NCBI GenBank assembly: GCA_002424625.1
Contig: DIKR01000071.1
Span: 97,392 to 151,502 of the forward strand
From: Desulfuromonadaceae bacterium UBA5613
GTDB lineage: Bacteria; Desulfobacterota; Desulfuromonadia; Desulfuromonadales; UBA2197
Direction of reading: 5' to 3'
Length of the DNA stretch: 54,111 nucleotides
This document shows, piece by piece, positions 8,074-52,193 of the stretch. A program made the position numbers and the translations under genes. Numbering within the stretch: the first letter of the stretch is position 1; the number at the start of each line of letters is the position of its first letter. The notes under the pieces are model-generated. The model worked only from the letters and a program-made list of their open reading frames with translations, was not told where the DNA came from and made no database searches.

Positions 8074-8074
8074 T

Positions 8075-9511: not shown

Positions 9512-9585
9512 GGCCTGACCGGGGCAACAAGTACAACAAGATCAAGAAGTTAACGAGCCAACCACAATATTCAGGAGGTAAGACA

Positions 9586-10218: not shown

Positions 10219-10353
10219 CCTCCACCCGGTCGGCGGCCACCCTCTCGGGAGATGAGGGGGTGCTTTATGAATGTTGCACAAAATTAACGTAACGACTGTA
10301 CCTCGTCAGGTGTTCGGCACCTTAACCCTCAACCTTCAATTAAAGGATAACCA

Positions 10354-13783: not shown

Positions 13784-13790
13784 GCCGGCC

Positions 13791-15317
13791 TTATTCGATC
13801 TCAATGCGGGGGAAGAGCGGGGCCGCTTTTTCGATGACCGTCCCCGGCTGCAGCCCGCCCCACTGATCGTTTGCTTCCAGGGTGCTGGCGGGATCACAAC
13901 CGACAATCGTCAGGATTTTAGCTCCGGTCGTCGGCATGAAGGGGCCGACCATCAGGGCGATAAGGCGGATCGCTTCGATGAGGTTGTAGATAACCGTGGC
14001 GAGCCGTTCCTGTTGGGCCGGATCTTTGGCGAGAGTCCAGGGGGCGCAATCGTCGATGTATTTGTTCGAAGCGCTGACCAGTTCCCAGATCGTCTGCAGG
14101 GCTTTACTGAAGGCGAGGTCGTCCATCTGCTCATCGAGATTTTTGACGGCGGAGGAGAAACGAGCGACGTAGTCGTGATCGAATTCAGCGAGAGCCGCAG
14201 GCGCGGGGAGGGCGGCGCCAAAATATTTGTGGAGCATGGCGGTGGAGCGGCTGACCAGGTTGCCGAGATCGTTGGCAAGGTCGGAGTTGATGCGGGAGGT
14301 CAGGGCCGATTGCGAAAAGTCGCCATCAAGGCCAAAGGGGACTTCGCGCAGGAGGAAGTAGCGGATGGCATCGACGCCAAAGCGATCGACGAGCATATTC
14401 GGCTCGACGACGTTGAGCAGGCTCTTGCTCATCTTCTGCCCTTCGACCGTCCACCAGCCGTGGGCAAAGACCTTCTTCGGCAGCGGCAGACCGGCGGCGA
14501 GGAGGAACGTCGGCCAGTACACGCTGTGAAAGCGCAAAATATCCTTGCCGATCACATGAACGTCCACCGGCCAGAATTTGGCGTAATTTCCGCCTTCGTC
14601 GGGGTAACCGAGGGCGGTGATGTAGTTGCTGAGCGCGTCGAACCAGACGTAGATGACGTGGGCTTCATCCTTGGGGACGGGGATCCCCCAGGAAAAAGTC
14701 GTGCGCGAGATGGAGAGATCGCGCAGCCCTTCCTTGACAAAGTTGACGATTTCGTTGCGCCGCGAGCGGGGCTGAATAAAATCGGGATTGGCTTCGATAT
14801 GGTCGAGGAGCGCCTGCTGGTATTTGCTCATGCGAAAGAAGTACGACGGCTCGGAAAGTTTTTGCGTCGGGCGGCCGCAATCCGGGCAGTTGCCGTCGAG
14901 GAGCTGCGTCTCGGTCCAGAAGGATTCGCAGGGAGTGCAATACCAGTCGACATACTCGCCAAGGTAGATATCATTCTTGGCCTGAATCGTTTCAAAGAGG
15001 GCGCATACCCCGTTTTTATGGCGTTCCTGCGAGGTGCGGATAAAGTCGGTGTGGCTGATATCGAGCTTCTCCCAGAGGGCGGCAAAGCGCATCATCACCC
15101 GATCCGCCAGCTCCAGAGGGGTTTCGCCTTTGGCCTGGGCCGCTTTCTCTACCTTCTGTCCGTGCTCGTCGGTCCCGGTCAGAAAAAAGACTTCGTAGCC
15201 GCGCGAACGCTTGTAGCGGGCGAGGGCGTCGCAGGCGAGGGTGGTGTAGGCATGGCCGATGTGGGGAACGTCGTTGACATAGTAAATTGGGGTCGTGACG
15301 TAAAACCGTTTAGCCAT
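13791..15317 (-). CDS. metG: Methionine--tRNA ligase
   Basis: Class I motifs are present (PHIGHAYT as the HIGH box, KMSKS) along with the zinc knuckle CPDCG. 508 aa. Confidence 0.95.
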   Translation of the reverse strand: MAKRFYVTTPIYYVNDVPHIGHAYTTLACDALARYKRSRGYEVFFLTGTDEHGQKVEKAAQAKGETPLELADRVMMRFAALWEKLDISHTDFIRTSQERHKNGVCALFETIQAKNDIYLGEYVDWYCTPCESFWTETQLLDGNCPDCGRPTQKLSEPSYFFRMSKYQQALLDHIEANPDFIQPRSRRNEIVNFVKEGLRDLSISRTTFSWGIPVPKDEAHVIYVWFDALSNYITALGYPDEGGNYAKFWPVDVHVIGKDILRFHSVYWPTFLLAAGLPLPKKVFAHGWWTVEGQKMSKSLLNVVEPNMLVDRFGVDAIRYFLLREVPFGLDGDFSQSALTSRINSDLANDLGNLVSRSTAMLHKYFGAALPAPAALAEFDHDYVARFSSAVKNLDEQMDDLAFSKALQTIWELVSASNKYIDDCAPWTLAKDPAQQERLATVIYNLIEAIRLIALMVGPFMPTTGAKILTIVGCDPASTLEANDQWGGLQPGTVIEKAAPLFPRIEIE

Positions 15318-23592: not shown

Positions 23593-24864
23593 ATGAGCCT
23601 TGTTGGAAATCTTGAAGATCTGGGTCTCGGCGATATTCTGCAAATTGTCAGTCTCAGCAGAAAGTCGGGGGAACTCCTTCTGCGTGGTCCGAAACGCGAG
23701 GGGAGAATCATATTCAAAAATGGACAGGTCAACCGGGCGCTCTCCACCGATTTCCGGGAAAATATCGGGGATCTCCTGGTACGCCGCGGGATTGTCGATA
23801 TTGACGTCATCAGGCAGGCCGCCGAGTTGCAGCGTACTGTCTATCCTGATCAGCGTCTCGGCACCATTCTCACTGAAAAGCACGGCGTACCTAAAGAAAC
23901 TATCGATATTCTCGTCAAGGAACAGATCGAAAAGATTGTTTATAGTTTTTTCACCTGGAATGAAGGGACGTTCGTTTTCGACCTTGGCGATAGTAATGAG
24001 GAAGCAGCCACAAGTTTCGACCCTCTGCAATTTATGCTCGATCAGGGAATTAACCCCCAGTGGCTGGCGCTGGAGGGGAGCCGGATCCTTGACGAGCGGC
24101 GGCACCGTGGCGAATCGCTCGATATTGTCGGAGATGAACCACTCCTTGAGGTTGCCAGTATCTTTGCCCCTGGCGCGGCTTCATCACCCGCCAAGGTCTC
24201 ACCCCTTCTCAACCCCTTCGCCGACAGCAGAAAATCTTTAAGCGCGGATCAGTCGGGGACTTTTAATCTCGGTGCCGAACTGCGACTGGAACTTGGTGAA
24301 GATAACTCTGCACAGCGTGGGGATAAAGGCCCGGAAACACCGGGATTGCATCTGTTGCGCGGCATGCTGCAAGAGTTGAATAATCCGGCTTTAGGGGGCG
24401 GAATTATTTTGCTGGTGTTGCGTTTTGCCAGTGAGTTGATGAATCGTGCCGTGATTTTTTTGGTGAAAGAATACGAAATTGTCGGGCTCGGTCAATTCGG
24501 GATGGAAGCGCTTGACGGAATTTCCGCTGATGAGCGGGTGCGGCGGATGCGCGTTCCCCGCAACGCCGGCTCGATTTTTGAGCAGGTACTCCAATCCTGG
24601 ACCCCCCTTAAAACGGTCACCGGTTCAGAGGAATGGGATCGCTATCTGGTCGAAGAACTTGGCAGTGGCGTGGCGAGTGAGATTTTTGTCGGGCCGATTA
24701 TCAGCGAGGGGAAGGTGGTTGCTATTCTTTACGGAGATAATGCCCCGCAAAAAAGAGTCATCGGCGATACAGAATCTTTGGAAATCTTTTTGTCGCAGGC
24801 AGGGTTGGCGATGGAAAAGGTCTTGCTCGAACGCAGATTGCGGAGCAAGGAAATGTTGGTTTAA
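23593..24864 (+). CDS. DUF4388/PATAN-domain protein with a central T2SSE_N/MshEN-like module and a C-terminal GAF-like domain
   Basis: N-terminus is GNLEDLGLGDILQIVSLSRKSGELLL...GRIIFKNGQV. The centre has two GspE-N-like half motifs (IGDLLVRRGIVDIDVIRQAAELQ and RLGTILTEKHGVPKETIDILVKEQ). The C-terminus is a GAF-like fold. Confidence 0.65.
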   Translation: MSLVGNLEDLGLGDILQIVSLSRKSGELLLRGPKREGRIIFKNGQVNRALSTDFRENIGDLLVRRGIVDIDVIRQAAELQRTVYPDQRLGTILTEKHGVPKETIDILVKEQIEKIVYSFFTWNEGTFVFDLGDSNEEAATSFDPLQFMLDQGINPQWLALEGSRILDERRHRGESLDIVGDEPLLEVASIFAPGAASSPAKVSPLLNPFADSRKSLSADQSGTFNLGAELRLELGEDNSAQRGDKGPETPGLHLLRGMLQELNNPALGGGIILLVLRFASELMNRAVIFLVKEYEIVGLGQFGMEALDGISADERVRRMRVPRNAGSIFEQVLQSWTPLKTVTGSEEWDRYLVEELGSGVASEIFVGPIISEGKVVAILYGDNAPQKRVIGDTESLEIFLSQAGLAMEKVLLERRLRSKEMLV

Positions 24865-24873
24865 GTAAGGAGG

Positions 24874-25254
24874 ATGCCTGGCGTGCAGAAGAAAATTCTG
24901 GTAGCGGAAGATTCTCCCACGATGCGCTACCTGATCGCTTCGACGATCGCAGCGCTCGGAGACTTTACTGTCATTGAAGCCGGGAACGGTTTTGAAGCAT
25001 TACGGATATTACCCCATGAAAAGGTCGATCTGGTGATTACGGACATCAATATGCCCGATATTAACGGCCTTGAGTTGGTGAGTTTTATTCGGCAGAGCCC
25101 GAATTATCGGACGACACCGCTCTTCATTATCAGCACCGAAGGTAGCGCCCGCGACCGGGAAAAAGGGATGTCTCTTGGTGCCAATGCCTATCTGGTCAAA
25201 CCTTTTGCCCCGGAAGAACTTCAGTCCCTGATCCGTCAATATCTTGGAGAGTAG
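24874..25254 (+). CDS. cheY: CheY-like single-domain response regulator
   Basis: 126 aa. ILVAEDS, VITDINMP (phospho-acceptor Asp), IISTEG and YLVKPF. Confidence 0.85.
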   Translation: MPGVQKKILVAEDSPTMRYLIASTIAALGDFTVIEAGNGFEALRILPHEKVDLVITDINMPDINGLELVSFIRQSPNYRTTPLFIISTEGSARDREKGMSLGANAYLVKPFAPEELQSLIRQYLGE

Positions 25255-25257
25255 ACT

Positions 25258-27321
25258 TTGAGCGATTCTAATTCTTCCCGCGCCATCAAGGATTTCCTCG
25301 CCGAATCAGAAGAGATTCTTGAACAGCTTAATCTCGATCTGGTGACCCTTGGTGATGCCATCGAGAATGGTGGAGATGTTGACCCGGGACTCCTCAATAC
25401 CATCTTCCGCGGTGCGCATTCCTTCAAGGGGATCTCCGGGATGTTCGGTTTTGACGATCTGTGTGAGTTGTGCCATCACATGGAAAGTCTGCTCGACAGT
25501 TTGCGCCTCGGTAAAGTGCCGCTTTCGGAAAATTTGATCGAGACCCTCTTTTCCCTGTTGGAAGTTTTGACTCGTCTGGTACACGGCAAGGCCGAATCCG
25601 AAGATTTCACCCTTGATATTAATCCCTTCATCCAGCGTATCGATGCCCTCCTCCGTGGTGATGAATTGTCAGCGCCGCCGGTTGCAGAGGGGATTGATCC
25701 CGCGATCCTGCGGGTGCTGACGGAGTACGAAGAGCATCGCCTTAACGAAAGCATCAAGAGCGGCAAGAATATCCTGCGGGTTGCAGTCAATTTCAGCCTG
25801 ATGAGCTTTGATGTGGAGCTTGCGGCACTGACCGATCACCTCAAGCAGTACGGCGAGGTCCTCAGTACTTTGCCCTCGGCCGGCGACCTTCCCGGGCATA
25901 TCGGTTTCCAGCTCCTTTTTGGTGCGCGCAGTACGGGCGAAGAGCTTGCAAGGATTTTGCAATCCGAAGACATAAAGATTGTCTGTCTTTACCCGGCGGT
26001 TGAAGTTGCGGCACCCTTGAATTTTCCGGCCAAATCGCACCCCTCTCGGCCTGTCGAAGTTGAGATCGTCAACAAAGAAGGGGAAGGCAACGAGGAAGAG
26101 CGTGCCGCTTCCTTGCGCTCCCTAAGTCGTACCGTGCGGGTTGACATCGATAAACTCGATAACTTGATGAATATAGTCGGTGAACTGGTCCTGTCCAAGA
26201 GTGCAATTACCGCCATTGCTGTGCAATTAAAGCAGCAGGAGTCGAATGATTTAACTGCGGAGTTGCAAAAAGCGACGCGAGGATTGGAGCGTCGTCTCGA
26301 AGAGCTGCAACAAGGGGTCATGGATGTACGGATGGTGCCGATTTCGCAGATTTTTGACAAGATGGTGCGAATCATCCGGCGTGCTTCCAACGAACAAGGG
26401 AAAAGAATTACACTTGATGTCCGTGGTGCGGAGACGGAGTTGGACAAATTGATCGTGGAAGATCTTTCCGACCCGCTCATGCATATTATTCGTAATGCCG
26501 TTGATCACGGCATTGAAGCGCCGGAAGAGCGTGTCGCTGCGGGAAAATCCGAAAAAGGGACGATTACGCTGTGGGCGGCGCAAAAAGGGAATCATGTCGT
26601 CCTGGAAATCGGTGATGATGGTCGCGGTATCGATGCCAACCGGGTGCGGCAGAAGGCGATCGAACGCGGGTTGATCTCTCCTGAAGCAGAATTGAGTCGG
26701 GAAGATATTTACAATCTGGTCTTCCTCCCCGGGTTCTCAACACGGGATGAAGTAACCGACCTCTCGGGCCGCGGGGTCGGCATGGACGTCGTCAAGAATA
26801 ATATCGCCGCTCTCTCCGGAGCGATTGAGATCGATAGCGAGTTCGGTCGCGGCACTTTGATGACGATTACCCTGCCGATTACCCTGGCTATTATCAAGGC
26901 CTTGATCGTGCGGGTCAGCGGCCGTAGTTATGCCATTCCCATCAATTCGGTACTGGAAACGTTGATGATCAATGCGTCGGCGATTCGCACCATTGAGCGC
27001 CGCGAGGTGATGGAATTACGGCAGAAAACTTTACCCCTGTTGCGTCTGACGGAAGTCTTTGCCCTCCCCGTCGAAGAGAAGCAAGGGAGCGCCCGCTCCT
27101 TCGTTGTCGTGACCGGCATGGCGGAAAAGAGGATTGGTATCCTGGTCGATGAGTTGATTGGTCAGCAGGATGTCGTCATTAAGTCTTTGGGGAAAGCCCT
27201 TTCTTTTGTGCGGGGGATTGCCGGCGCCGCCGATCTTGGTAATCAGAAAACGATTCTGGTCCTTGATGTCGGCGGATTGATGAATGAAGCGTTGCGGGGA
27301 GAGTTGGCGCGGCATGTATGA
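25258..27321 (+). CDS. cheA: Chemotaxis histidine kinase CheA
   Basis: TTG start. Hpt (FRGAHSFKG), dimerisation region, HATPase (DPLMHIIRNAVDHG, DDGRGI, GRGVGMD) and a C-terminal CheW-like P5 domain. Confidence 0.92.
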   Translation: MSDSNSSRAIKDFLAESEEILEQLNLDLVTLGDAIENGGDVDPGLLNTIFRGAHSFKGISGMFGFDDLCELCHHMESLLDSLRLGKVPLSENLIETLFSLLEVLTRLVHGKAESEDFTLDINPFIQRIDALLRGDELSAPPVAEGIDPAILRVLTEYEEHRLNESIKSGKNILRVAVNFSLMSFDVELAALTDHLKQYGEVLSTLPSAGDLPGHIGFQLLFGARSTGEELARILQSEDIKIVCLYPAVEVAAPLNFPAKSHPSRPVEVEIVNKEGEGNEEERAASLRSLSRTVRVDIDKLDNLMNIVGELVLSKSAITAIAVQLKQQESNDLTAELQKATRGLERRLEELQQGVMDVRMVPISQIFDKMVRIIRRASNEQGKRITLDVRGAETELDKLIVEDLSDPLMHIIRNAVDHGIEAPEERVAAGKSEKGTITLWAAQKGNHVVLEIGDDGRGIDANRVRQKAIERGLISPEAELSREDIYNLVFLPGFSTRDEVTDLSGRGVGMDVVKNNIAALSGAIEIDSEFGRGTLMTITLPITLAIIKALIVRVSGRSYAIPINSVLETLMINASAIRTIERREVMELRQKTLPLLRLTEVFALPVEEKQGSARSFVVVTGMAEKRIGILVDELIGQQDVVIKSLGKALSFVRGIAGAADLGNQKTILVLDVGGLMNEALRGELARHV

Positions 27322-28129
27322 GGCTTTTTACGGCTTGCAAGACCGGCCCTTCAGCAAGACTCCTGATCCGCGCTTCCTTTTTCTAAGCGGGACGCATCGG
27401 GAAGCATTGGCGCGTTTGGTCCATGCTGTGGAAGAACGGGACCTGATCCTTCTGACCGGGGATATCGGTTGCGGTAAGACCACCCTTTCCCGGGCCTTGA
27501 TGGATGAACTCGGCGACGATTACAAGGTTCTCCTGCTGGTCAATCCGCGCTTAACGCCCATCGAATTTTTGCGAACCCTGGCCCTGCGCCTCGATATTGC
27601 CGAACCGTCGCGATTCAAGACCGACCTTTTGGAAGAGATTGGCGGAGCGCTTTATGCTGCTTATGAAAAGGGAATCTGTCCGGTCCTGGTGATAGATGAG
27701 GCTCAACTCGTCCCTTATAAAGAAACTTTTGACGAGATCCGCCTTCTCACCAATTTTCAGCTGGATGACCGTAATCTCCTCAGTGTTGTTCTCATGGGGC
27801 AACCGGAGTTGCGGCGGCGTCTGGCGCATCATGCTTATGAACCCTTGCGGCAACGGATTGGCATGCAATATGCGCTCAAACCGTTATCGCTGGTCGAGAC
27901 CGGTGAATATCTCGATTTTCGTTTAGCGGTGGCGGGTGGAAAGCCGGGGCTCTTTTTGCCGGAAGCGGTGGAACTCCTTTACCGGTTCTCTTCCGGCGTC
28001 CCCCGACGCATCAATCACATTGCCTCCCTGGCGTTGCTTGAGGGATTCGGTCGTGAAGCCCGGCACATTAGCGCCAAGATCCTCGACGCAATCCTCAGTG
28101 AACTTAACCTTGTCGCTAAGAGCGGATGA
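27314..28129 (+). CDS. ExeA/GspA/MshM-like AAA+ ATPase (ATPase module only)
   Basis: MYEAFYGLQDRPF N-terminus typical of ExeA. Walker A GDIGCGKTT and Walker B VLVIDEAQ. The ATG at 27314 overlaps the cheA stop (27319-27321). Confidence 0.75.
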   Translation: MYEAFYGLQDRPFSKTPDPRFLFLSGTHREALARLVHAVEERDLILLTGDIGCGKTTLSRALMDELGDDYKVLLLVNPRLTPIEFLRTLALRLDIAEPSRFKTDLLEEIGGALYAAYEKGICPVLVIDEAQLVPYKETFDEIRLLTNFQLDDRNLLSVVLMGQPELRRRLAHHAYEPLRQRIGMQYALKPLSLVETGEYLDFRLAVAGGKPGLFLPEAVELLYRFSSGVPRRINHIASLALLEGFGREARHISAKILDAILSELNLVAKSG

Positions 28130-28132
28130 TCG

Positions 28133-28870
28133 ATGAATATTGCCGAAATCAGAAAGAAAGCCCGGGATGATAAGGCGGAATCCAGGATTTGCGAGTCGGA
28201 ACCCCTGAGTGGCGCGGTGACTCCCAAAGAGGTCGCGTCTGCCGCCGGGTCGTTGCCACCGTTGGTGATACAACCGTTATCGCCTCCGCTTGCGGAATCG
28301 CCGGCAGCAGCTCCCGTCGCGGAAAGAGAGCTGCTCGCAGTTGGCAACGATCGTCTCGATCAGCTCTTTTCCTGGGTGCCGCAGGCGGAGGACCTTCTGC
28401 TTGAGAGCTCCATCGGTGAGGCAAGGGTTGAAGTCGCAGCGCGACGTTGGCTGTCATTTTCTCTGGGGAGCGAAGATTATGCCCTAGACATCAGTCTGAT
28501 TCGCGAAATTCTTAAACCTCGTGAGATTACAGCAATCCCCCGGGTGCCGGACTTTCTACTCGGTATCATCTCCTTGCGCGGCAACATTATCCCCATCTTC
28601 GATCTCAAAAGAAGGTTGGGTCTGGGGGTGGTGACGGTTGACGAGGATTCACGGATTATTGTGTGTCAGGAAGGCGAACTCCTCGCCGGCCTTTTGATCG
28701 ACCGGATTACGCAAGTGACATCCATTCAGGAAGAAGGGATTGAGCCGCCACCGGCAATTTTTTCCGGTCGGGATCGGGCCTTGCTCGATGGTGTTGGGCG
28801 TGTTCAGGGAAAAGTGCTGATATTGCTGAATATAGCCAATGTTTTAACGATCGACTCGAATGGTTTATGA
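28133..28870 (+). CDS. cheW: CheW-like coupling protein with a ~100-aa N-terminal extension
   Basis: CheW core YALDISLIREILKPREITAIPRVPDFLLGIISLRGNIIPIFDLKRRLG. The N-terminal region is low-complexity and Pro/Ala-rich. Confidence 0.85.
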   Translation: MNIAEIRKKARDDKAESRICESEPLSGAVTPKEVASAAGSLPPLVIQPLSPPLAESPAAAPVAERELLAVGNDRLDQLFSWVPQAEDLLLESSIGEARVEVAARRWLSFSLGSEDYALDISLIREILKPREITAIPRVPDFLLGIISLRGNIIPIFDLKRRLGLGVVTVDEDSRIIVCQEGELLAGLLIDRITQVTSIQEEGIEPPPAIFSGRDRALLDGVGRVQGKVLILLNIANVLTIDSNGL

Positions 28871-28889
28871 GGAGAAAGGGGAGCATAAC

Positions 28890-29261
28890 ATGGCAAAGCA
28901 AAAGATTATGGTGGTAGAAGATGAGGAGAGCCTGCTTAAGTTGGAAAGCATTTTGTTGACCTCTCGCGGTTATCAGGTTTGCAGCATGCGCAATGGGAGA
29001 GATGCCTTGGAAAGCATTGCAACAGAGAAACCTGATCTCGTCCTCCTTGATGTTATGTTGCCTGAAATCGATGGATTTGAAGTCTGCCGCCAGATCAAGG
29101 AAAACCCTTTGACCAGCCATATCCCCGTTGTTCTTCTCACCGCAAAAAAGGGGCGGGAAGATATGGCGAAAGGGGAAGAGGTCAAGGCGGACTGGTACAT
29201 CACTAAACCGTTTAAATCAGCGATGGTGATTGAAACTATTCAGAGGTTTTTGAACCGATGA
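28890..29261 (+). CDS. Single-domain response regulator
   Basis: IMVVEDEE, VLLDVMLP, LLTAK and YITKPF. ATG 28890 with a GGAGAAAGGGGA RBS is preferred over the ORF start 28860. Confidence 0.85.
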   Translation: MAKQKIMVVEDEESLLKLESILLTSRGYQVCSMRNGRDALESIATEKPDLVLLDVMLPEIDGFEVCRQIKENPLTSHIPVVLLTAKKGREDMAKGEEVKADWYITKPFKSAMVIETIQRFLNR

Positions 29262-29800
29262 TCGGCCATTTTGGAGAAAATGATCTGCAGGAAACGGATA
29301 GAAAGATGGTTCGTGCCGAGGTCAAACTCGCCACCTTTCGTGTTGGCAGCGCTCTTTATGCCATCGACATTCTGCGCATCAAGGAGATTATTCGTCCGAT
29401 CAAGGTGACCTCAGTCCCGAATTCTCCACCATATATCGAGGGGGTCGTCAATTTACGGGGGGCGGTGATTCCGGTCATCGATTTGCGTAAGCGTTTTGTC
29501 GTTGCCACCACTGTTGACGGTCGCTTGACGCGTATCGTCATCTGTCTGGTCTTCCGCCGTCTTTTTGCTCTGGTTGTTGATGAGGTCGTCGAAGTTCGCA
29601 GTTATGTCAGGGAGGAATTACATCCCCCCCCGAAATTTTTTCAGGGGCAGGAGACCGATATCTTTCTTGGAGTCGCACACCGTGCCGACGATCTTTTGAT
29701 GATCCTTGATCTGGAGCGTTTTTTGTCTTTGTCGCGAATGGTCGACTTCATCCCTCCATCGGGCATGCTGGATGACCGTTCTGCTATTTCCCTGTCATAG
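29258..29800 (+). CDS. cheW: CheW coupling protein
   Basis: YAIDILRIKEIIRPIKVTSVPNSPPYIEGVVNLRGAVIPVIDLRKRF. ATGA overlap with the preceding receiver gene. Confidence 0.85.
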   Translation: MIGHFGENDLQETDRKMVRAEVKLATFRVGSALYAIDILRIKEIIRPIKVTSVPNSPPYIEGVVNLRGAVIPVIDLRKRFVVATTVDGRLTRIVICLVFRRLFALVVDEVVEVRSYVREELHPPPKFFQGQETDIFLGVAHRADDLLMILDLERFLSLSRMVDFIPPSGMLDDRSAISLS

Positions 29801-29815
29801 GTTATCGAGGGATTC

Positions 29816-30718
29816 ATGATTATCAGTTGTCACCATTGCGGAAAACATGTTCGTATCGATGTCGTCAAATATTCAGGAAAGCGGATAAAGTTGCGTTGCA
29901 GTCACTGTAGCACAGCTTCTGTGGCAGAGGTTCCGATTCAGACCGGCAGCGCCGCAAACAGGTCGGAGCTGTCGCGATCGCAAGTCCTTATTGCTCATAG
30001 TGACCCCGTTCTTTGTAGTACCGTCGGGAGTATCCTTGGCAATCATGGTTTCTTGTGGCAGGCGTGTCATGATGGTGAAACCGCCTTGGAATTTATGGAT
30101 CGTCAGCCCCCGCAGGTTGCCATTGTTGATGTGGCTCTTCCCGGCCTTTTTGCTTTTGAGGTGGTTGAAAAGGTCCGCAAACGTCCAGGGCTTGAAGGTG
30201 TCAAGATCATGCTTTTGAGCTCGGTTTACAATAAAATGGCTTACAAGCGTCGTCCAACCACGCTTTACGGCGCCGACGATTATATCGAAAAGCACCATAT
30301 ACCCCTTGATTTAATAGCAAAAATACATAAGTTAATTGAAAGAAACTGTCACGAAGTGAAAGGGGGAGCGATTGCTCCCGAGGAAGTATCGACCCGTTTG
30401 GAGATAGATGAACTTAAGACCCGGTTGAAAAATGCCGAAGAGTCGGAGAGGATTCTGGCTCCCCTTGAACTTGCAGAGTTGGCGAAGGCGCAACGTCTGG
30501 CTCGAATCATCGCCTCTGATATCTCCTTGTACGATGAAGCCAAGGTGAAAGAAGGGATTCGCTCGGGAACTTTTTTTGAACTCTTTGCAGAGGAAATAGC
30601 TGAAGGACGGCAACACTTTCTAGCCCGGATTCCAGAAACCGTTCCCCGCCGTATCGCGATTCTTGATGAAGCATTTAACGAATTAATCGAACACTTTCGT
30701 CGTGAAAATCATTTGTAA
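29816..30718 (+). CDS. MJ0042-type zinc-ribbon protein with a receiver-like domain and a helical C-terminal region
   Basis: CHHCG...CSHC zinc ribbon at the N-terminus. The receiver-like core is VLIAHSD, VAIVDVALPG, IMLLSS and ADDYIEKH. The C-terminus is charged and helical. Confidence 0.6.
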   Translation: MIISCHHCGKHVRIDVVKYSGKRIKLRCSHCSTASVAEVPIQTGSAANRSELSRSQVLIAHSDPVLCSTVGSILGNHGFLWQACHDGETALEFMDRQPPQVAIVDVALPGLFAFEVVEKVRKRPGLEGVKIMLLSSVYNKMAYKRRPTTLYGADDYIEKHHIPLDLIAKIHKLIERNCHEVKGGAIAPEEVSTRLEIDELKTRLKNAEESERILAPLELAELAKAQRLARIIASDISLYDEAKVKEGIRSGTFFELFAEEIAEGRQHFLARIPETVPRRIAILDEAFNELIEHFRRENHL

Positions 30719-30743
30719 TCTGTAGGTTACGGAGTTACTCGTT

Positions 30744-32753
30744 GTGAATCGTTGTCTTTTGATACAAACGGCCCTTCTGTCAACAGACGAAGAGATTCGC
30801 TTGAGCGGTCTGCAAAGTCTTTACCACTACGACGGTGAAAAGCGCATCGATTTGATCTGTGCGGCACTGGGTGATAACAGTTGGCGCATTCGCAAGGAAG
30901 CGATCAATCTCTTTCTCTCTCTTCCCTGTGCCGTTGCTTCTGCTGAGCGCATCCTTGTCCTCCTTTATGATGAAGAAAATGCTGGTCTGCGGAATGCAGC
31001 GGCTGAAATTCTGGTAAAACTGGGTCATGTCGTCCTCCCGATCTTGTTCCGCTCCGCCGATTCACCCGACCCTGACGTTCGTAAATTTATTCTCGATATT
31101 TTGGGCGATATCGGCGATCAACAGGCGACGCCATTGCTGTTACGTTTGCTGCAGAATGATGATGAGACCAATGTTCGTGCTGCTGCGGCGGAAAATCTCG
31201 GCAAGATTCGGGATGCCAGCGCTGTGCCGGTTATGGTCAGCGCCTTGTCGACGCCTGATCTGCTTGTGCAGTTCAGTCTCCTTGATGCCCTGGCCCGGAT
31301 TGGCAGTGTGATTCCCGTGGCGGGTCTTGTCGGTCTGGGCGAAAACAGGTTGTTAAAAAAACCCCTCTTCGATCTTTTGGGCCGGATCGGTGACGAAACG
31401 GCGATTTCTCCCCTGGTGGCCGGGTTGCATGATCCGATGCGTAACGTCCGTGAGGCAGCAATTCTGGCATTGCAGAGCCTGGTGTCCCGTTGTGGCGAGA
31501 AGGTTCTGGTCGGACAGTTGACCGCAACCGACCTGGATGGGGTCATCGCGTTACTATCGAGTTCGTCACTGCCGGTGCAGAAAGCGGCTCTGTCCATCCT
31601 CGGCAGGCATTGTGATCGAGAGCGCGCCCTTCTTCTGTCATCCTATCTCGACGACGACCACCTTGCTGCTGATGTTGTGACTATTTTTCTGGCAAGGGGG
31701 CACGATGACGTTGCCGACCTCACCATGTGCTGGGTCGGCGCATCCGAGAAGAAAAAAGCGTATCTTGCTTATCTCTTTGGTGCAATGGGGGTTGAAAGTG
31801 CTGTTAATCTGCTTGTTTCTGAATTGAAAACAGCGGACGATTTTTTGCGGACCATTCTTCTCCGCACCCTGGGACAGGTCGGAAGGATTGAAGATATTGC
31901 CATTTTGGCGGGTTATCTTGAGGATTCTGAAGATGATGTCCGGCAAGCGGCGGTTGAAGGTCTGGTGAATATCGCGAAACGGTTTCACGCTTCAGTTATC
32001 GATCTGGTGCGCAATGCTTTAGCTCATGTTGAGCCCCCGATTCGTCAGGCTGCCCTTCAGGTCCTGGGCCGCCTTGGCGGGGCGGAGTCAGAAGCCCTGC
32101 TGTTGCTGGCGATGAAGGATGAATCCTCACTGGTCAGGCGTGCGGCTATTTGCTACCTCGATGGACGCAACCCGCACCATTATCCGGCGCTGACCTTGGC
32201 GTTAACGGATGAGGAGAGTGATGTCAGGCGCCAGGCCATTGAAACCCTGGCCATGAGTGCCGTTCGCTCCTTGACCGAGCCTCTCATGCTTGTGTTGCAG
32301 GACGAGGACCCCTGGGTCCGGGCTGCCGCTGTCCGTGCTCTTGGGCATTTTGGCGGGAGCGAGGCTCTGGCCGCCGTCCGCAGTGGTCTGCGTGACCCGG
32401 TTGGACTGGTGGCGATAGCGGCCGTGGAGACTTTGACAAAGGAGGATATCCCTTTTGATCAGAAGGAGCTGGCCGCTCAACTTGGTCATGCTGATGATGA
32501 TGTTGTTCTGGCATTGTTGAAGGAGTTATCAACATCGTCTGACACTTTCTGGCTTGGGCAGTGGGGGGAGAAGTTGTTGGGACACCAGCACTGGTTGATC
32601 CGGCAGAAGGTCGCGGAGATAATCGGTCACCGGGGGACAGCAGAGGGACGGGTCCTTTTGCAGCAGCGCTTGCTGCTAGAGGAAGAGGAGATCGTGCGCA
32701 CCGCCCTTCATCAGGGACTGAGCGCCTTTGCCTGCGCCGGGGAGAGCGACTAG
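30744..32753 (+). CDS. HEAT-repeat (PBS-lyase-type) protein
   Basis: 669 aa with a GTG start. Many repeats of the form D(x)xxVRxxAaxaLGxiG (e.g. DPDVRKFILDILGDIGD, NVRAAAAENLGKIRD, DPWVRAAAVRALGHFGG). Confidence 0.75.
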   Translation: MNRCLLIQTALLSTDEEIRLSGLQSLYHYDGEKRIDLICAALGDNSWRIRKEAINLFLSLPCAVASAERILVLLYDEENAGLRNAAAEILVKLGHVVLPILFRSADSPDPDVRKFILDILGDIGDQQATPLLLRLLQNDDETNVRAAAAENLGKIRDASAVPVMVSALSTPDLLVQFSLLDALARIGSVIPVAGLVGLGENRLLKKPLFDLLGRIGDETAISPLVAGLHDPMRNVREAAILALQSLVSRCGEKVLVGQLTATDLDGVIALLSSSSLPVQKAALSILGRHCDRERALLLSSYLDDDHLAADVVTIFLARGHDDVADLTMCWVGASEKKKAYLAYLFGAMGVESAVNLLVSELKTADDFLRTILLRTLGQVGRIEDIAILAGYLEDSEDDVRQAAVEGLVNIAKRFHASVIDLVRNALAHVEPPIRQAALQVLGRLGGAESEALLLLAMKDESSLVRRAAICYLDGRNPHHYPALTLALTDEESDVRRQAIETLAMSAVRSLTEPLMLVLQDEDPWVRAAAVRALGHFGGSEALAAVRSGLRDPVGLVAIAAVETLTKEDIPFDQKELAAQLGHADDDVVLALLKELSTSSDTFWLGQWGEKLLGHQHWLIRQKVAEIIGHRGTAEGRVLLQQRLLLEEEEIVRTALHQGLSAFACAGESD

Positions 32754-33635
32754 ATGCTCTTCTTTGCTCCGGATATTCCCTTGCCGGATGAGGAGTTCCG
32801 CTTGCTGCGTGATCTTGTCTATCAGCACTGCGGCTTGTATTTCCACGAAGAGAACCGCTATCTTCTCGAAAAAAGGCTGTCCAAACGGGTACAACAACTC
32901 CAACTGAAAAACTTTAAAGATTATTATTATCTTCTACGTTATAGTCCCCAGCGCGAAAACGAGTTGACAGAAGTCGTCAATACCCTGACCACGAATGAGA
33001 CCTATTTTTTTCGCGAAGATTTTCAGCTCAAAACGTTTGTCCGGGAAATACTGCCGGAGATTCGGGCCCAAAAAGAGCAGGAAGGGGAGCGTCGTCTGCG
33101 GATCTGGAGTGCGGGGTGTTCTTCCGGCGAAGAACCTTATACTCTGGCCATGCTTCTCCTCGATATACCGGCCTTTCAGGGGTGGCAGATTGAAATTATC
33201 GGTACCGATATCAGCCAAAGGGTTTTGAATCTGGCCCGCAAAGGGGTGTACGGCACGTCGTCTTTCCGGACAACCGACGACGATTACCTGCGGCGATTTT
33301 TTGTCGAGTATGAAGGTAAATACAAGATCGTCGACCGCGTCAAAAATCTGGTGACAATTAGTCATCTTAATCTCTTTGATACAACCAAAGTTTCTCTTCT
33401 TGGCAAGATGGATGTCGTCTTTTGTCGTAATGTTATTATCTATTTTGATGCAACCGGAAAAAAACGGGTGATCGATACATTTTATCAACGTTTGCGCCCG
33501 GACGGTTTTTTACTCCTCGGCCATTCCGAGTCACTCATGAATATTACGAACCAATTTTCCTTGCGCCATTTCACCCATGACATGGTCTACCAGCGGCCTC
33601 CTGTCGGTGCGTCTTTGTTCCCGGAGGGATTATGA
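32754..33635 (+). CDS. cheR: Chemotaxis protein methyltransferase CheR
   Basis: TNETYFFRE and the SAM-binding IWSAGCSSGEEPYTLAM motif. It starts immediately after the HEAT-protein stop codon. Confidence 0.9.
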   Translation: MLFFAPDIPLPDEEFRLLRDLVYQHCGLYFHEENRYLLEKRLSKRVQQLQLKNFKDYYYLLRYSPQRENELTEVVNTLTTNETYFFREDFQLKTFVREILPEIRAQKEQEGERRLRIWSAGCSSGEEPYTLAMLLLDIPAFQGWQIEIIGTDISQRVLNLARKGVYGTSSFRTTDDDYLRRFFVEYEGKYKIVDRVKNLVTISHLNLFDTTKVSLLGKMDVVFCRNVIIYFDATGKKRVIDTFYQRLRPDGFLLLGHSESLMNITNQFSLRHFTHDMVYQRPPVGASLFPEGL

Positions 33636-34702
33636 GTTCAACAATCCGGGTCCTGGTTGTTGATGATTCCGCCTATAACCGGCGAACGATCATCAAGATG
33701 CTGGAGGCGGTCCCCGGCATTGAGGTCGTCGGTTATGCCTGTGACGGAGAAGAGGGGCTGCGTAAAGTCTTTGACTTGCATCCGGATCTGATCACCCTGG
33801 ATCTGGAGATGCCGCGGATGGACGGTTTCACCTTCCTGCGGATCGTTATGGCCGGACGTCCGACCCCGGTTATTGTTATCTCGGCGCGTTCCGAGGACGA
33901 AAATGTTTTCCGTGCCCTTGATTTTGGAGCTGTCGATTTTGTCGCCAAGCCCTCGGCGCGGATTTCTCCCGAACTCTTTAATATTCGAGAAGACTTGGTA
34001 CGCAAGGTCCTTTCCGGCGGCCGGGCCGACATGAGCAAAGTGCTGCAACGCAACCGCCAGGTTGAGACCCTGGTGCCGCTGAGCATCGCCGCCCGTAAAA
34101 GTGGAGAGCAATTTTCGAGCGTCAAACAAACGACAGCCCTGGTCGTTATCGGCGCTTCAACCGGGGGGCCGCCAGCGTTACAAACGATCTTTTCCGCCAT
34201 TCGCGAGCCCCTGCCGGTGGCGTTTGCTATCGCCCAACACATGCCCCCGGGGTTCACCCGGGCTTTTGCCGAGCGGATGAACAAGCTTTCGGCACTGACG
34301 ATCTCTGAGGCCGCCGATGGGGATCTGGTCCTGCCGGGGAAGGTCTTTATTGCTCCCGGCGGGAAGAACCTGGTCTTTGAGCGAAGCGGGCACGAGATCC
34401 GGATCAGAGTGGTCAACCCATCCCCGGCACAGCGGTATGTTCCCTCTGTCGATGTTCTCTTTACCTCGGCCGCGGAAACCTTTGCCGCCAACACCGTTGC
34501 GGTTGTTCTTACCGGGATGGGGAATGACGGCCACCAGGGAGTTATGGCGGTTAAAAAGGCGGGGGGGACCGTGATTGCTGAATCGGAAGAGAGCAGTGTG
34601 GTCTTTGGTATGCCCAAGGAAGCGATTGCGACCGGATGTGTCGATACAGTCGTCCCCCTGGCTTTGGTCTGTGGAGAAATAATGCGCAAGAGCGGTCTTT
34701 AA
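33632..34702 (+). CDS. cheB: Protein-glutamate methylesterase CheB
   Basis: Receiver domain (VLVVDDS, ITLDLEMP) plus an esterase domain (IGASTGGPPAL, HMPPGFT, GMGNDG). ATGA overlap with cheR. Confidence 0.92.
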   Translation: MSSTIRVLVVDDSAYNRRTIIKMLEAVPGIEVVGYACDGEEGLRKVFDLHPDLITLDLEMPRMDGFTFLRIVMAGRPTPVIVISARSEDENVFRALDFGAVDFVAKPSARISPELFNIREDLVRKVLSGGRADMSKVLQRNRQVETLVPLSIAARKSGEQFSSVKQTTALVVIGASTGGPPALQTIFSAIREPLPVAFAIAQHMPPGFTRAFAERMNKLSALTISEAADGDLVLPGKVFIAPGGKNLVFERSGHEIRIRVVNPSPAQRYVPSVDVLFTSAAETFAANTVAVVLTGMGNDGHQGVMAVKKAGGTVIAESEESSVVFGMPKEAIATGCVDTVVPLALVCGEIMRKSGL

Positions 34703-34751
34703 ATTCATGGTAAGCAATTTCTTGTACACCGATAAGGAAGGAGATCACTTT

Positions 34752-35573
34752 ATGAGTGAACAGGACGACGACAAGAGCGCCAGCCGTCGCGCTGAAGAGT
34801 TTCTACAGGTTTTTAAGAGAGGGGCGGATTTTACCCAGGATCTGCTCAAGGAGAATGAGCGGCTGCGTTTCTCTCTCCTTCAGCTTGAAGGTCAGTTAAA
34901 GAGCGGCAGCAATGCCGATAACGAGGAAACCATCCGTATGCGAAAACGGATCGAGGAACTCGAACAGCAAAAGGAAGAGATTCTCGGCCGCGCCCGGAGG
35001 GTCGAAGAAGAGAATGCCGACTTCGCCAATCGCTATGTTGAGATCGAAAATGAAAACAACATGTTGGCGAATTTGTACATCGCTTCTTATCAGTTGCATT
35101 CCACCCTCGACTTTCGCGAAGTCTTGCAGGTTATTACCGAGATTATCATCAATCTGATTGGCGCTGAAGAATTTGCCATCATGTTGCTCGATGAAAAGAC
35201 CAATAAGCTGCAGGCGGTCATGACCGAAGGGCTTGAAATCTCCGAAGTTCCTGCGATCGCCATCGGTGACGGTCTGGTCGGGCAGATGGCCAAGACCGGT
35301 GAGAATTACTTTATCGATCAGATGGATAACTATGAGCGTGATTTCCACCATCCCCTCGTTGTCATCCCCCTGAAGATCAAAGAGCGCGTGATCGGCGTGA
35401 TTGTTATCTATAAACTTCTCGTGCAAAAACCGAAGTTTGCCGAGGTGGATTACGAACTCTTTACGCTTCTGGCGGGGCATGCGGCCACGGCCATCTTCTC
35501 TTCCAAGCTTTATTCGGAGTCAGAACGTAAGCTTTCGACAATCCAAGGTTTTATTGATCTTCTGACCAAGTAA
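34752..35573 (+). CDS. Coiled-coil + GAF domain protein
   Basis: The N-terminal ~110 aa is acidic coiled coil. The C-terminal GAF is REVLQVITEIIINLIGAEEFAIMLLDE...GLVGQMAKTGE...VIGVIVIYK. ATG 34752 with an AAGGAAGGAG RBS is preferred over 34707. Confidence 0.7.
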   Translation: MSEQDDDKSASRRAEEFLQVFKRGADFTQDLLKENERLRFSLLQLEGQLKSGSNADNEETIRMRKRIEELEQQKEEILGRARRVEEENADFANRYVEIENENNMLANLYIASYQLHSTLDFREVLQVITEIIINLIGAEEFAIMLLDEKTNKLQAVMTEGLEISEVPAIAIGDGLVGQMAKTGENYFIDQMDNYERDFHHPLVVIPLKIKERVIGVIVIYKLLVQKPKFAEVDYELFTLLAGHAATAIFSSKLYSESERKLSTIQGFIDLLTK

Positions 35574-35594
35574 TCGTTAACAGGAGCCACGACT

Positions 35595-35975
35595 ATGTCT
35601 AACTATAATGTGTTGATCGTAGAAGATTCTCCGACCATGCGGCAATTGATCGTCTTTGCTTTGAAACGGATCCGGGGACTCACTATCGTCGAGGCGGGGG
35701 ATGGGGTTGACGGTTTAAAAAAACTCTCCGCGACAAAATTTGATATGATTCTGACTGACATCAATATGCCGATTATGGATGGCCTCAAGTTGGTCAGTCT
35801 GGTGCGAAGCGACCCCAATTATGCCGCTGTACCGATCGTGATTATTACCACTGAGGGTGCCAGCGAGGACAAAGAGCGGGCCATTGCATTGGGGGCAAAT
35901 GCATATATTACCAAACCGATCCAGACAACCCAGATCCTTGATGTGACCAGGCGCTTGCTGAATCTGCCCGCCTAA
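35595..35975 (+). CDS. cheY: CheY-like single-domain response regulator
   Basis: VLIVEDS, ILTDINMP, IITTEG and YITKPI. It is similar in sequence to the CheY at 24874..25254. Confidence 0.85.
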   Translation: MSNYNVLIVEDSPTMRQLIVFALKRIRGLTIVEAGDGVDGLKKLSATKFDMILTDINMPIMDGLKLVSLVRSDPNYAAVPIVIITTEGASEDKERAIALGANAYITKPIQTTQILDVTRRLLNLPA

Positions 35976-36072: not shown

Positions 36073-36291
36073 TTGTCTAAAGAAGAAGCAATTGAAGTAG
36101 AAGGTTCGGTCATTGAGCCCTTGCCTAATGCCATGTTCCGCGTCAAGCTCGACAACGGTCATGTTGTTTTGGCGCATATTTCCGGAAAGATGCGCAAATT
36201 TTATATTCGTATTCTTCCCGGCGATCGGGTCACCGTTGAACTTTCCCCCTACGATTTGACCCGTGGCCGGATTACCTACCGCGCCAAATAG
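36073..36291 (+). CDS. infA: Translation initiation factor IF-1
   Basis: [41 protein letters not shown]...[17 protein letters not shown] 36073 gives the canonical 72-aa protein with GGAGGA 5-6 nt upstream. The listed ORF start 36058 is a longer alternative. Confidence 0.93.
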
Positions 36292-36379: not shown

Positions 36380-36410
36380 GAATACCGGCCTGGCCGGTAT
36401 TCCTGTTTTC
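36380..36410 (+). terminator. Rho-independent terminator after infA
   Basis: Palindrome gaataccggcc-t-ggccggtattc followed by CTGTTTTC. Confidence 0.5.
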
Positions 36411-44964: not shown

Positions 44965-46008
44965 ATGAGATATTCACGAGTCTATATAGAATCAGTCGGT
45001 TATGAATTGGCGCCGATCGTCGTCACTTCGACGGAGCTGGAACAGCGCCTTAAACCGATGTATGAAGCGCTGCATATTGCGCCCGGGCAACTTGAAACCC
45101 TGACCGGCATCCGCGAGCGACGCTGGTGGAAGCCGAATACTCCGGTGTCGCTGGGAGCGATCGCCGCTGCCCGCAAGGCGCTGCAAGGGCGGAATATTAC
45201 CCCGCAGGATATCGGCGCGGTCGTTTATGCCGGCGTTTGTCGCGAGAACTTCGAGCCGGCCACCGCTTGTCCGGTGGCGTCCGCCCTCGGTGTCCACGGC
45301 GCCGCCGCTATTTACGACATCTCCAATGCCTGTCTCGGCATTCTCAACGGCGTTCTTGATATTGCCAATCGCATCGAACTTGGCCAGATCCGCGCCGGAT
45401 TGGTTGTGGCTTGCGAAAGCTCCCGCGAGATCAACGAGGTCATGATCAAGAAGATGAACGAAAATCCGAGCATGGAGCTCTTTACCACCTCCCTTGCCAC
45501 CTTTACCGGCGGTTCCGGGGCAGCGGCGGTCCTGCTCACCGATGGCTCCTTTACTCCGGCACGGCGGCCGAAACTCCTCGGCGGCGTCAATCTCGCCGAG
45601 CCGCAGCACCATAAACTCTGTCGCTGGGGGATCAAATCCAATTCTGTCGAGAATCACGTCCCCTACATGCAGACCGATGCGGTGGCGGTGATGAAGCATG
45701 GCGTCGAACTCGGCAAACGCACCTGGGATGCGCTGCTCAAGGAGCTGGATCTGACCACTGAGCAGATTGACAAGGTTATCTGTCATCAGGTCGGCAATGC
45801 CCACCAGAAGCTGATTTTACAGACGATCGGCGTGCCGCTGGAGAAGGACTTCACCACCTATGAATTCCTCGGCAATATGGGGACGGTCTCTCTGCCGGTG
45901 ACTGCCGCCCTCGCCAAGGAGCGTGATGTTCTCCTCCCCGGCGATATCGTCGGTTTCCTCGGCATCGGCAGCGGTCTCAACTGCCTGATGTTGGGGATCC
46001 AATGGTAA
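44965..46008 (+). CDS. oleA: OleA-type thiolase (FabH-like, head-to-head Claisen condensing enzyme)
   Basis: FabH-like fold with active-site Cys context (ISNACLG) and a GNMGTVS C-terminal motif. It is assigned as OleA because of the strict oleA-B-C-D gene order. Confidence 0.8.
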   Translation: MRYSRVYIESVGYELAPIVVTSTELEQRLKPMYEALHIAPGQLETLTGIRERRWWKPNTPVSLGAIAAARKALQGRNITPQDIGAVVYAGVCRENFEPATACPVASALGVHGAAAIYDISNACLGILNGVLDIANRIELGQIRAGLVVACESSREINEVMIKKMNENPSMELFTTSLATFTGGSGAAAVLLTDGSFTPARRPKLLGGVNLAEPQHHKLCRWGIKSNSVENHVPYMQTDAVAVMKHGVELGKRTWDALLKELDLTTEQIDKVICHQVGNAHQKLILQTIGVPLEKDFTTYEFLGNMGTVSLPVTAALAKERDVLLPGDIVGFLGIGSGLNCLMLGIQW

Positions 46009-46898: not shown

Positions 46899-46902
46899 GA
46901 GG

Positions 46903-51972: not shown

Positions 51973-52130
51973 TTCAACTTTCATAATTGTCTTTTTTACG
52001 GTACAACTTTGACTCTTTTTAATGGCGGGATTTGCAGGTTGAGAGAGGGCTTGAATGTTTAAACAGAATGCAGCAGCGCTAACGCCGCCTTGATCAGCAG
52101 ATAACAATGCCGATCGGCGGCGTTTTGCAT

Positions 52131-52155
52131 TTGATATTCCAATCTGGAATATCAA
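52131..52155. repeat. Perfect 11-bp-arm palindrome
   Basis: ttgatattcca-atc-tggaatatcaa, read directly from the sequence. Confidence 0.9.
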
Positions 52156-52166
52156 ATTGCCGAATC

Positions 52167-52193
52167 TTTGAGGTCACAAATTGTGACCTCAAA
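52167..52193. repeat. Perfect 27-nt palindrome that includes the IS3-family left end
   Basis: tttgaggtcaCA-aat-TGtgacctcaaa. A further copy of the half-site (tttgaggAcaca) lies at 52227-52238. Confidence 0.9.

Follow-up and report, generated by a model that had tools for sequence, protein, structure and literature searches.

Chemosensory (che) clusters that carry homologs of cheA, cheW, cheR and cheB but no gene for a methyl-accepting chemotaxis protein (MCP) were described by Tran et al. in 2008 as the 'beta group' (PMC2577667). Its members include cluster 5 of Geobacter sulfurreducens, cluster 2 of G. metallireducens and cluster 5 of G. uraniireducens. The group is conserved in delta-proteobacteria, Myxococcus, Anaeromyxobacter, Stigmatella and Plesiocystis included, and unpublished knockouts hinted at control of the extracellular matrix (PMC2577667). 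Here, we analyze a run of thirteen che and accessory genes (genes 1 to 13, Table 1) in a 54,111-nucleotide stretch of contig DIKR01000071.1 from Desulfuromonadaceae bacterium UBA5613, which we refer to as the window. We find that this run is almost certainly the ortholog of the beta-group cluster (che cluster 5, or Esn, in G. sulfurreducens) in an uncultured Desulfuromonadales bacterium.

In 2017, Chan et al. recovered three genes of the G. sulfurreducens cluster as transposon sequencing (Tn-seq) hits for growth on electrodes: GSU2220, a CheW named EsnB; GSU2221, an ATPase; and GSU2222, a CheA named EsnC (PMC5585712). Scarless deletions of esnB and esnC abolished electrode colonization and left Fe(III) oxide reduction normal. 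Deletions of esnA (GSU1704) and esnD (GSU3376) had the same electrode-specific defect, again with normal Fe(III) oxide reduction, and growth of the esn mutants on fumarate was normal (PMC5585712). EsnA is a GAF-sensor MCP of class 40H that is encoded away from the cluster and associates with EsnB and EsnC in a two-hybrid assay; EsnD, a GGDEF response regulator, is the proposed output (PMC5585712). The same Tn-seq screen recovered pilC, pilQ and pilP (PMC5585712). A later paper places GSU2224, an Asp-phospho 'response regulator', between GSU2223 (CheY)/GSU2222 (CheA) and EngA/Der (GSU2225). A beta-group cluster and EsnA homologs are present in five of five Desulfuromonas genomes compared, and two of these five strains are described as flagellum-harboring. 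By 2026, citations of the Esn network still went no further than 'suggested to be important'.

The window cluster agrees with the beta group in gene content, in the absence of an mcp gene, in gene order and flanks, and in phyletic spread. Like G. sulfurreducens Che5/Esn, it combines cheA, two cheW, cheR, cheB and several cheY genes in the same local order. The window order Der, PATAN protein, CheY, CheA, AAA_22 ATPase, CheW is the published order of GSU2225, GSU2224, GSU2223, GSU2222, GSU2221 and GSU2220; by position, gene 1 corresponds to GSU2224, gene 2 to GSU2223, gene 3 to EsnC/GSU2222, gene 4 to GSU2221 and gene 5 to EsnB/GSU2220. The two clusters differ in that the window PATAN protein has no receiver, whereas GSU2224 is described as an Asp-phospho response regulator. 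We searched for relatives with the gene 8 family as the seed. A relative is encoded on 506 stretches, and we compared 80 loci (L001-L080), all from Desulfuromonadales or Geobacteraceae (including Geothermobacter, Geomonas and Geobacter spp.; G. sulfurreducens is not among them). As judged by tblastn of the window proteins, the order der-g1...g13-leuS is kept in essentially all full-length loci of this set, and identity to the window proteins ranges from approximately 33% (the HEAT-repeat protein in Geobacter spp.) up to 98% (a CheY in the closest metagenome-assembled genomes). Because this order is conserved across related genomes, the thirteen-gene grouping is more than chance. A preliminary description of the window, made from its letters alone, had called for a co-occurrence analysis of the gene set and had presented the locus as a non-motility, mcp-less operon with non-canonical components and with unclear input and output. 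The recurrence of the order across the 80 loci supports the grouping, and the non-motility, mcp-less character stands. The architecture itself is not new, since beta-group clusters have been known since 2008 and the Esn phenotype and receptor have been reported. What has been characterized in Geobacter covers the description of the cluster, its receptor and its phenotype; it does not extend to what is sensed, to the output in biochemical terms or to the accessory proteins.

Two clusters of Myxococcus xanthus invite comparison. Che8 (MXAN_4751-4759) is also mcp-less, and M. xanthus is listed with a beta-group cluster (PMC2577667). Its order is CheY8b, CheA8 (with H-kinase_dim), CheW8b, CheW8a, two unnamed genes, CheR8, CheB8 and CheY8a. 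Going by the spacing of locus tags only, it differs from the window cluster in having no slot for an ATPase between cheA and cheW, nor for the GAF gene. CheA8 acts on the orphan regulator MXAN_4468, and the function of Che8 was otherwise still unknown in 2022. Che7, with CheY7 and the HEAT-repeat protein Cpc7, was cited as a precedent in the preliminary description; it shares with the window a HEAT-repeat protein in a che cluster and a non-motility output. Che7 differs in that it encodes its own soluble receptor, Mcp7, within the cluster; the window has the HEAT protein without an Mcp7-type receptor. A PATAN protein, an ExeA-like ATPase and a Zn-ribbon/RomX receiver are not listed for Che7 in those parts of the literature that we consulted. 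The HEAT protein shared with Che7 is a resemblance only, and Che7 is not the closest relative. Judged by gene order, the mcp-less Che8 is apparently a reduced relative of the window cluster and is closer to it than Che7.

Gene 8 provides the most specific lead to an output. Its last approximately 80 amino acids (aa) match RomX (PDB 8ZNA) along 72 aligned residues, with E values of 3.6e-19 for a profile (alignment A1) and 4.9e-13 when gene 8 alone is the query. The helix-1 residues R11, R14 and D19 of RomX are needed for MglA-GTP binding. Their equivalents in gene 8 (R227, R230 and D235) are invariant in alignment A1 (18 sequences), and the R/R/D motif is kept in 77 of the 88 gene 8-family sequences examined, all outgroups included. 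An AlphaFold (AF2) model, with a predicted local distance difference test score (pLDDT) of 77, has a three-helix C-terminus, so that the likeness to the M. xanthus RomR/RomX-MglA module consists of a homologous domain, equivalents of the three contact residues and a predicted three-helix bundle. The context is different. RomX is a free 95-aa protein that binds RomR, whereas in gene 8 the domain shares one polypeptide with a Zn-ribbon and an atypical receiver, and the gene sits inside a che operon; the Trp-87 region through which RomX contacts the RomR receiver is absent from gene 8, where the receiver is fused in cis. In this receiver, His-Ser replaces the acidic pair, and the phospho-acceptor Asp (D105), S135 and K159 are invariant. 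The preliminary description had recognized the Zn-ribbon and the receiver, both of which hold, and had overlooked the RomX-like C-terminus. Proteins with a Zn-finger, a receiver (REC) and a RomX-like domain were already noticed by Foldseek in the RomX structure preprint (for example, A0A2N6E6P0 from Desulfuromonas); in the portions of the preprint consulted, we found no mention of a chemosensory context. Foldseek with the whole gene 8 model returned mostly receiver domains and nothing on the Zn-ribbon or RomX parts, and the Zn-ribbon alone gave only noise against the PDB. In every locus, outgroups included, the HEAT-repeat gene (gene 9) lies directly 3' of gene 8, and the stop codon of gene 8 often overlaps the start codon of gene 9. 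We note that a separate locus (L083:10001-11185) encodes a 394-aa Zn-ribbon/receiver protein with two tandem RomX-like repeats and has no che genes nearby; the RomX-like module can therefore be orphan and duplicated.

Gene 1 may point to the type IV pilus. Its PATAN domain contains a helical insert and is joined by a low-complexity linker to a divergent GAF-like domain at the C-terminus. PATAN domains serve as the output module in Synechocystis, where they bind PilB1 and PilC, and pilus-type (Tfp) che loci typically begin with a PatA-type gene. The arrangement in the window, a PATAN protein first and a CheY next, resembles that of the cyanobacterial PatA-type regulators PixG, PixE and TaxP, from which gene 1 differs in having no receiver, a divergent C-terminal GAF domain and no pilus genes nearby. 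Most gene 1 orthologs (537-640 aa) have the layout PATAN, REC, C-terminal domain, whereas the proteins of the window, L001, L013, L018 and L020 have a short linker in place of the REC domain (alignment A2). The receiver has been lost as a lineage-specific variant, and gene 1 is therefore no longer directly phosphorylatable. Weak GAF_2 matches to the C-terminus were found in 13 of 18 family members (best E 2.6e-5). A comparison with the GAF family of gene 12 gave an hhalign probability of 0.1, and a PDB profile search matched the receiver part only; because neither supports it, the GAF assignment rests on the weak Pfam matches. An MshE-type c-di-GMP (cyclic di-GMP) motif scored 22 bits against a cutoff of 38, and there is a weak match to the PilB N-terminus. 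Of the preliminary reading of gene 1 as a DUF4388/PATAN-MshEN-like-GAF protein, then, the PATAN part is secure, the GAF part is weak but consistent, and the MshEN-like part is sub-threshold.

Geobacter genetics tie the pathway to electrode colonization and the extracellular matrix, with EsnD as one proposed target (PMC5585712, PMC2577667). From domain content, we tentatively predict that the pathway also acts directly on the machinery of cell polarity and type IV pili, a possibility to which we give less than an even chance. We base this prediction on (i) the RomX homology of gene 8 with its invariant MglA-contact residues, (ii) the presence of MglA, MglB and RomR in Geobacter, (iii) the known partners of PATAN domains, and (iv) the pil genes in the Tn-seq screen. 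G. sulfurreducens encodes MglB and an MglA that is 82% identical to the Myxococcus protein, both of which are among the best-conserved Geobacter proteins, and RomR is present in Geobacter and Pelobacter. In Table 1 of Tran et al., only G. metallireducens and G. uraniireducens are listed with a CheA-CheY fusion (PMC2577667); because no such fusion is listed for G. sulfurreducens, this suggests that the species has no Frz-like cluster.

Several observations weigh against this prediction or against the assignments on which it builds. Nothing in the 54-kb window ties the host to MglA or to pili, and a tblastn search with MglA and MglB query sequences found neither in the window or in 87 fetched loci. 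Gene 8 ends 8 residues past the RomX-aligned region, has no equivalent of Trp-87 and carries a basic residue after the helix. Its receiver lacks the acidic Mg-binding pair and may be a pseudo-receiver that is not phosphorylated by CheA, and the window PATAN protein has no receiver at all. Roles for the HEAT, GAF and ATPase proteins are putative, the one experimental pointer being the single Tn-seq score of GSU2221, the counterpart of the ATPase. Orthology to the GSU genes draws on published synteny and on loci of other Geobacter spp. (L055 and L056 as proxies). Finally, c-di-GMP and EsnD alone could explain the Geobacter phenotypes.

This last point amounts to an alternative in which the output is a second messenger only. 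CheA would phosphorylate an EsnD-like GGDEF regulator, c-di-GMP would drive the switch to biofilm growth on a surface, nucleotides would be sensed for feedback by the GAF proteins of the cluster and its MshEN-like motif, and the RomX-like and PATAN domains would have been re-used for other partners. Such an output was proposed by Chan et al., and it agrees with the electrode-specific defect shared by the esnD deletion and with the GAF domain of EsnA (PMC5585712). The cluster itself holds one clear and one divergent GAF domain, and gene 1 has the weak c-di-GMP motif and PilB match described above. However, phosphotransfer from CheA to EsnD remains a proposal only (PMC5585712), the c-di-GMP motif is below its threshold, and this alternative leaves no role for a RomX-like domain whose MglA-contact residues are invariant across the family. 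As the sole output, we consider it rather unlikely. The second-messenger and polarity models are not mutually exclusive.

With regard to the input, the cluster contains the canonical core, with catalytic motifs and CheY active sites present, and the receptor is not co-encoded. No MCP signaling domain was detected by tblastn of the Tsr, EsnA and Gura4018 domains against the window (best E 0.05-0.35), and ten shadow open reading frames (ORFs) of at least 137 aa in the cluster gave no significant Pfam match (one match to EMC6_arch, at E 0.15, is at noise level). The absence of the MCP hairpin on either strand, as first reported in the preliminary description, is thereby confirmed. A different arrangement was found in four outgroup lineages (L078, L081, L082, L084 and L085), where a HAMP-MCP of 690-704 aa lies between the second CheW and the Zn-ribbon receiver. 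Their backbone is otherwise PatA-type protein, CheY, CheA, AAA_22 ATPase, long CheW, CheW, Zn-ribbon/REC/RomX-like protein, HEAT, CheR and CheB; L082 (CP070770.1, a complete 3.4-Mb genome) and L085 additionally carry the GAF protein and the final CheY. These clusters differ from the window in their in-cluster MCP, in having no CheY between the CheWs and in their flanking genes. Their first gene is much longer (555-640 aa, with a Pfam receiver in three of four: L081, L082 and L085), and their long CheW (241-285 aa) has the same long form as gene 5. We took the signaling domain of EsnA from the alignment in the supplement of Tran et al.; it can be aligned gap-free to the receptors of L078, L081 and L082 across 300-309 aa, whereas Tsr (class 36H) requires 32-56 gap positions over the same region. 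These three receptors also have an unusual hairpin tip, NLLALNAAIIASQ(S/A)GE(Y/Q)GK(S/G)FAVVADEI, compared to NLLALNASIIAAQAGEYGKSFGVVADEI in EsnA. The simplest reading is that clusters of this family have a common partner, an EsnA-type MCP of a single length class, which some lineages encode in cis and Desulfuromonadales in trans.

Hence the substrate of CheR and CheB in the window organism is probably an EsnA-type MCP acting in trans. The preliminary description had left two options for this substrate, a protein encoded elsewhere or one of the unusual proteins of the cluster. The first is supported by EsnA in a relative and by the outgroup MCPs. The second is disfavored because the outgroups hold an ordinary HAMP-MCP in cis, and because L081 and L084 have the MCP and no GAF protein. 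A system that is truly MCP-less, with the coiled-coil GAF, HEAT or PATAN-GAF protein as a methyl-accepting stand-in that couples to CheW and CheA, could account for the lack of an MCP in the cluster and the window, for the long coiled-coil N-terminus and high conservation of the GAF protein (gene 12; 74% mean column identity, alignment A4), and for the retention of CheR and CheB although no substrate neighbors them. We regard it as very improbable. The CheW and CheA of the orthologous cluster associate with EsnA, whose deletion causes the same phenotype as theirs; standard HAMP-MCPs occur in cis in the outgroups, with an EsnA-like hairpin in the three receptors compared; the L081/L084-type clusters carry an MCP and no counterpart of gene 12; and the accessory proteins show no similarity to an MCP signaling domain by Pfam or tblastn.

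Conventional chemotaxis that steers flagellar swimming through MCPs scattered in the genome is equally improbable: the CheA/W/Y/R/B set is complete with intact catalytic motifs, and most mcp genes are scattered in Geobacter genomes (PMC2577667), but no flagellar genes occur among the scanned window ORFs, the cluster is present in all five Desulfuromonas genomes with only two strains described as flagellum-harboring, esn mutants are defective in surface colonization but grow normally with fumarate or Fe(III) oxide (PMC5585712), and a PatA-type gene in first position is typical of che loci of the pilus type and not of flagellar ones. The output is not flagellar.

Based on these comparisons, we propose the following scheme for an Esn-type pathway with a polarity output. 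An EsnA-type class 40H MCP encoded elsewhere would form arrays with both CheWs and CheA, as shown by two-hybrid assay for the G. sulfurreducens proteins, and CheR and CheB would methylate and demethylate that MCP for adaptation. Phosphorylated CheA would feed the three CheYs, CheB and possibly the atypical receiver of gene 8. Gene 8, together with the HEAT protein coupled to it, would bind MglA-GTP and perhaps also MglB; contact with MglB might be made by the Zn-ribbon, in the manner of the GltJ zinc-finger noted in the RomX structure preprint. The partners of the PATAN protein would be PilB and PilC of the pilus motor, and the ExeA-like ATPase would be an accessory factor. These binding steps are predictions from domains. 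As a single statement, the identity of the cluster, a receptor in trans and a polarity output seem somewhat more probable than not. The strongest form of the scheme goes further: a beta-group (Esn/Che5/Che8) cluster would be wired directly into the MglA/MglB module without Frz, gene 8 and the HEAT protein would capture MglA-GTP upon CheA activity, and the PATAN protein would engage PilB/PilC, such that the place and time at which type IV pili, or pilus-dependent secretion of matrix and cytochrome filaments, are deployed would be controlled as cells colonize a surface or electrode. This form is doubtful, though conceivable.

The stand-alone CheYs vary in their distribution. Gene 2 is 51-60% identical to the CheY at the same position in the outgroup clusters, and gene 13 is 63-66% identical to the terminal CheY of L082 and L085. 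The gene 6 CheY is variable: it lies between the two CheWs in the window and is absent from the outgroups and from part of the Geobacteraceae. It is missing from L049, L055, L056, L058, L064, L071 and L075, where the two cheW genes are adjacent, and kept in the Geomonas and Desulfuromonadales loci. We considered whether gene 6 is a receiver split off a PatA-type protein and rejected this, since its identity to those receivers is only approximately 30% (E 5e-8) and ordinary CheYs are closer to it. The receivers of genes 2, 6 and 13 and of CheB have complete Asp, Ser/Thr and Lys active-site residues when aligned to E. coli CheY, and gene 2 also keeps the acidic pocket (ED). Among the other active sites, the CheA phospho-His is H54 in an HSFKG motif (P1), the catalytic-Ser motif of CheB is GASTGG, and the gene 4 ATPase has the Walker A motif GCGKT and the Walker B motif LVIDEAQ. 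Gene 4 scores 219 bits against TIGR03015 (PEP-CTERM-associated ATPase), under the cutoff of 324.5.

Table 1. Genes of the window cluster and domains of gene 8 (positions are those of the window).
Feature	Position	Strand	Evidence
Gene 1: PATAN (PatA_N/DUF4388) protein	23593..24864	+	Pfam DUF4388 96.6 bits, aa 5-169
Gene 2: CheY-like single-domain receiver	24874..25254	+	Response_reg 95.2 bits
Gene 3: CheA	25258..27321	+	Pfam Hpt, H-kinase_dim, HATPase_c, CheW = P1, P3, P4, P5
Gene 4: ExeA/GspA/MshM-like ATPase	27314..28129	+	AAA_22 77.9 bits
Gene 5: long CheW	28133..28870	+	CheW 121.2 bits, aa 106-239; N-terminal extension of ~100 aa
Gene 6: CheY-like receiver between both CheW genes	28860..29261, likely start 28890	+	Response_reg 96.1 bits
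Gene 7: CheW	29258..29800	+	CheW 117.6 bits; ATGA overlap with gene 6
Gene 8: Zn-ribbon/receiver/RomX-like protein	29816..30718	+	Zn_ribbon_4 and Response_reg; PDB 8ZNA match
Gene 8, Zn-ribbon	aa 1-35, nt 29816-29920	+	Four invariant Cys
Gene 8, atypical receiver	aa ~57-170, nt 29984-30325	+	Response_reg
Gene 8, RomX-like three-helix domain	aa ~221-298, nt 30476-30709	+	PDB 8ZNA match
Gene 9: HEAT-repeat protein, 669 aa	30744..32753	+	HEAT_2 224.6 bits, 7 stretches
Gene 10: CheR methyltransferase	32754..33635	+	CheR 197.6 bits, CheR_N 53.4 bits
Gene 11: CheB methylesterase with receiver	33632..34702	+	CheB_methylest 209.6 bits, Response_reg; NF001965 383.7 bits (above its cutoff)
Gene 12: coiled-coil N-terminus and GAF	34707..35573, likely start 34752	+	GAF_3 63.1 bits, aa 138-263
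Gene 13: CheY-like receiver	35595..35975	+	Response_reg 95.8 bits

ORF coordinates and inspection of the junctions bear out the thirteen co-directional, packed genes of the preliminary description, and Pfam confirms its CheA, two CheW, CheR, CheB and three stand-alone CheY proteins. The ORF call of gene 4 runs from 27284. The actual start is 27314 (MYEAFYGLQDRPF), with the ribosome-binding site GGGGAGAG ahead of it, which leaves an overlap of 8 nucleotides (nt) with cheA. ATGA overlaps occur at 29258/29261 and 33632/33635, genes 9 and 10 abut at 32753/32754, and the remaining intergenic gaps in the run are all 25 nt or less. The cluster is flanked by rnc, a radical-SAM gene, era and der upstream and by infA, leuS, lptE and holA downstream. 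infA (IF-1, 72 aa) lies at approximately 36073-36291, between gene 13 and leuS. At 36380-36402, 3' of infA, is a 10-bp stem followed by a T-rich tail, which is the region's strongest terminator-like hairpin; a terminator scan of the region showed no comparable one between gene 13 and infA. No sigma-54 promoter was found upstream of gene 1, as matches across the window were at chance level, and the sigma-70 and terminator scans of the window were at chance level overall. Genes for CheZ/C/D/X, flagella, pili and MglA/MglB were not found in the scanned window ORFs (a few ORFs outside the cluster were not scanned), which agrees with the preliminary description for the first three groups.

The window contains several other loci. 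Positions 337-10905 (+) encode a Tol/Exb/Agl-like proton-channel motor cluster, which comprises a 629-aa protein without a Pfam match, TPR proteins of 1039 and 236 aa, an ExbB/MotA-type channel, two ExbD/TolR proteins, a 478-aa protein without hits, a second ExbB and an OmpA-domain protein. A lone regulator with WYL and WCX domains (11392-12378, +) lies between this cluster and the housekeeping genes. On the opposite strand, a 508-aa ORF (12380-13906, -) joins a TatD DNase (aa 55-306) to a radical-SAM domain (aa 325-483), either as a real fusion or as two genes merged by the ORF call. Positions 44965-49550 (+) encode a FabH-like thiolase, an alpha/beta hydrolase, an AMP-binding enzyme and a 3-beta-HSD/epimerase-type reductase, followed by a phosphopantetheinyl transferase; this order resembles that of an oleABCD olefin/beta-lactone lipid cluster. 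An Mrr-type restriction endonuclease with a topoisomerase-type zinc finger is encoded at 52778-53845. The stretch with the lowest GC content of the window is 52001-54000 (0.483, versus approximately 0.55 elsewhere), and the Mrr gene was possibly acquired horizontally.

A cluster of this kind is ordinary for its bacterial order, having been catalogued since 2008 and partly characterized since 2017, and the pathway to which it belongs governs electrode colonization in a model electricigen. Our analysis adds three leads: (i) an EsnA-like receptor encoded in cis in the outgroups, (ii) a fused receiver/RomX-like module, and (iii) a PatA-type pilus-motor regulator without a receiver. These leads make it directly testable whether Geobacter-type bacteria connect chemosensing to a Ras-like polarity GTPase and to type IV pili. 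If true, direct wiring to MglA would give the Geobacter Esn network a defined output and the Myxococcus Che8 system a function.

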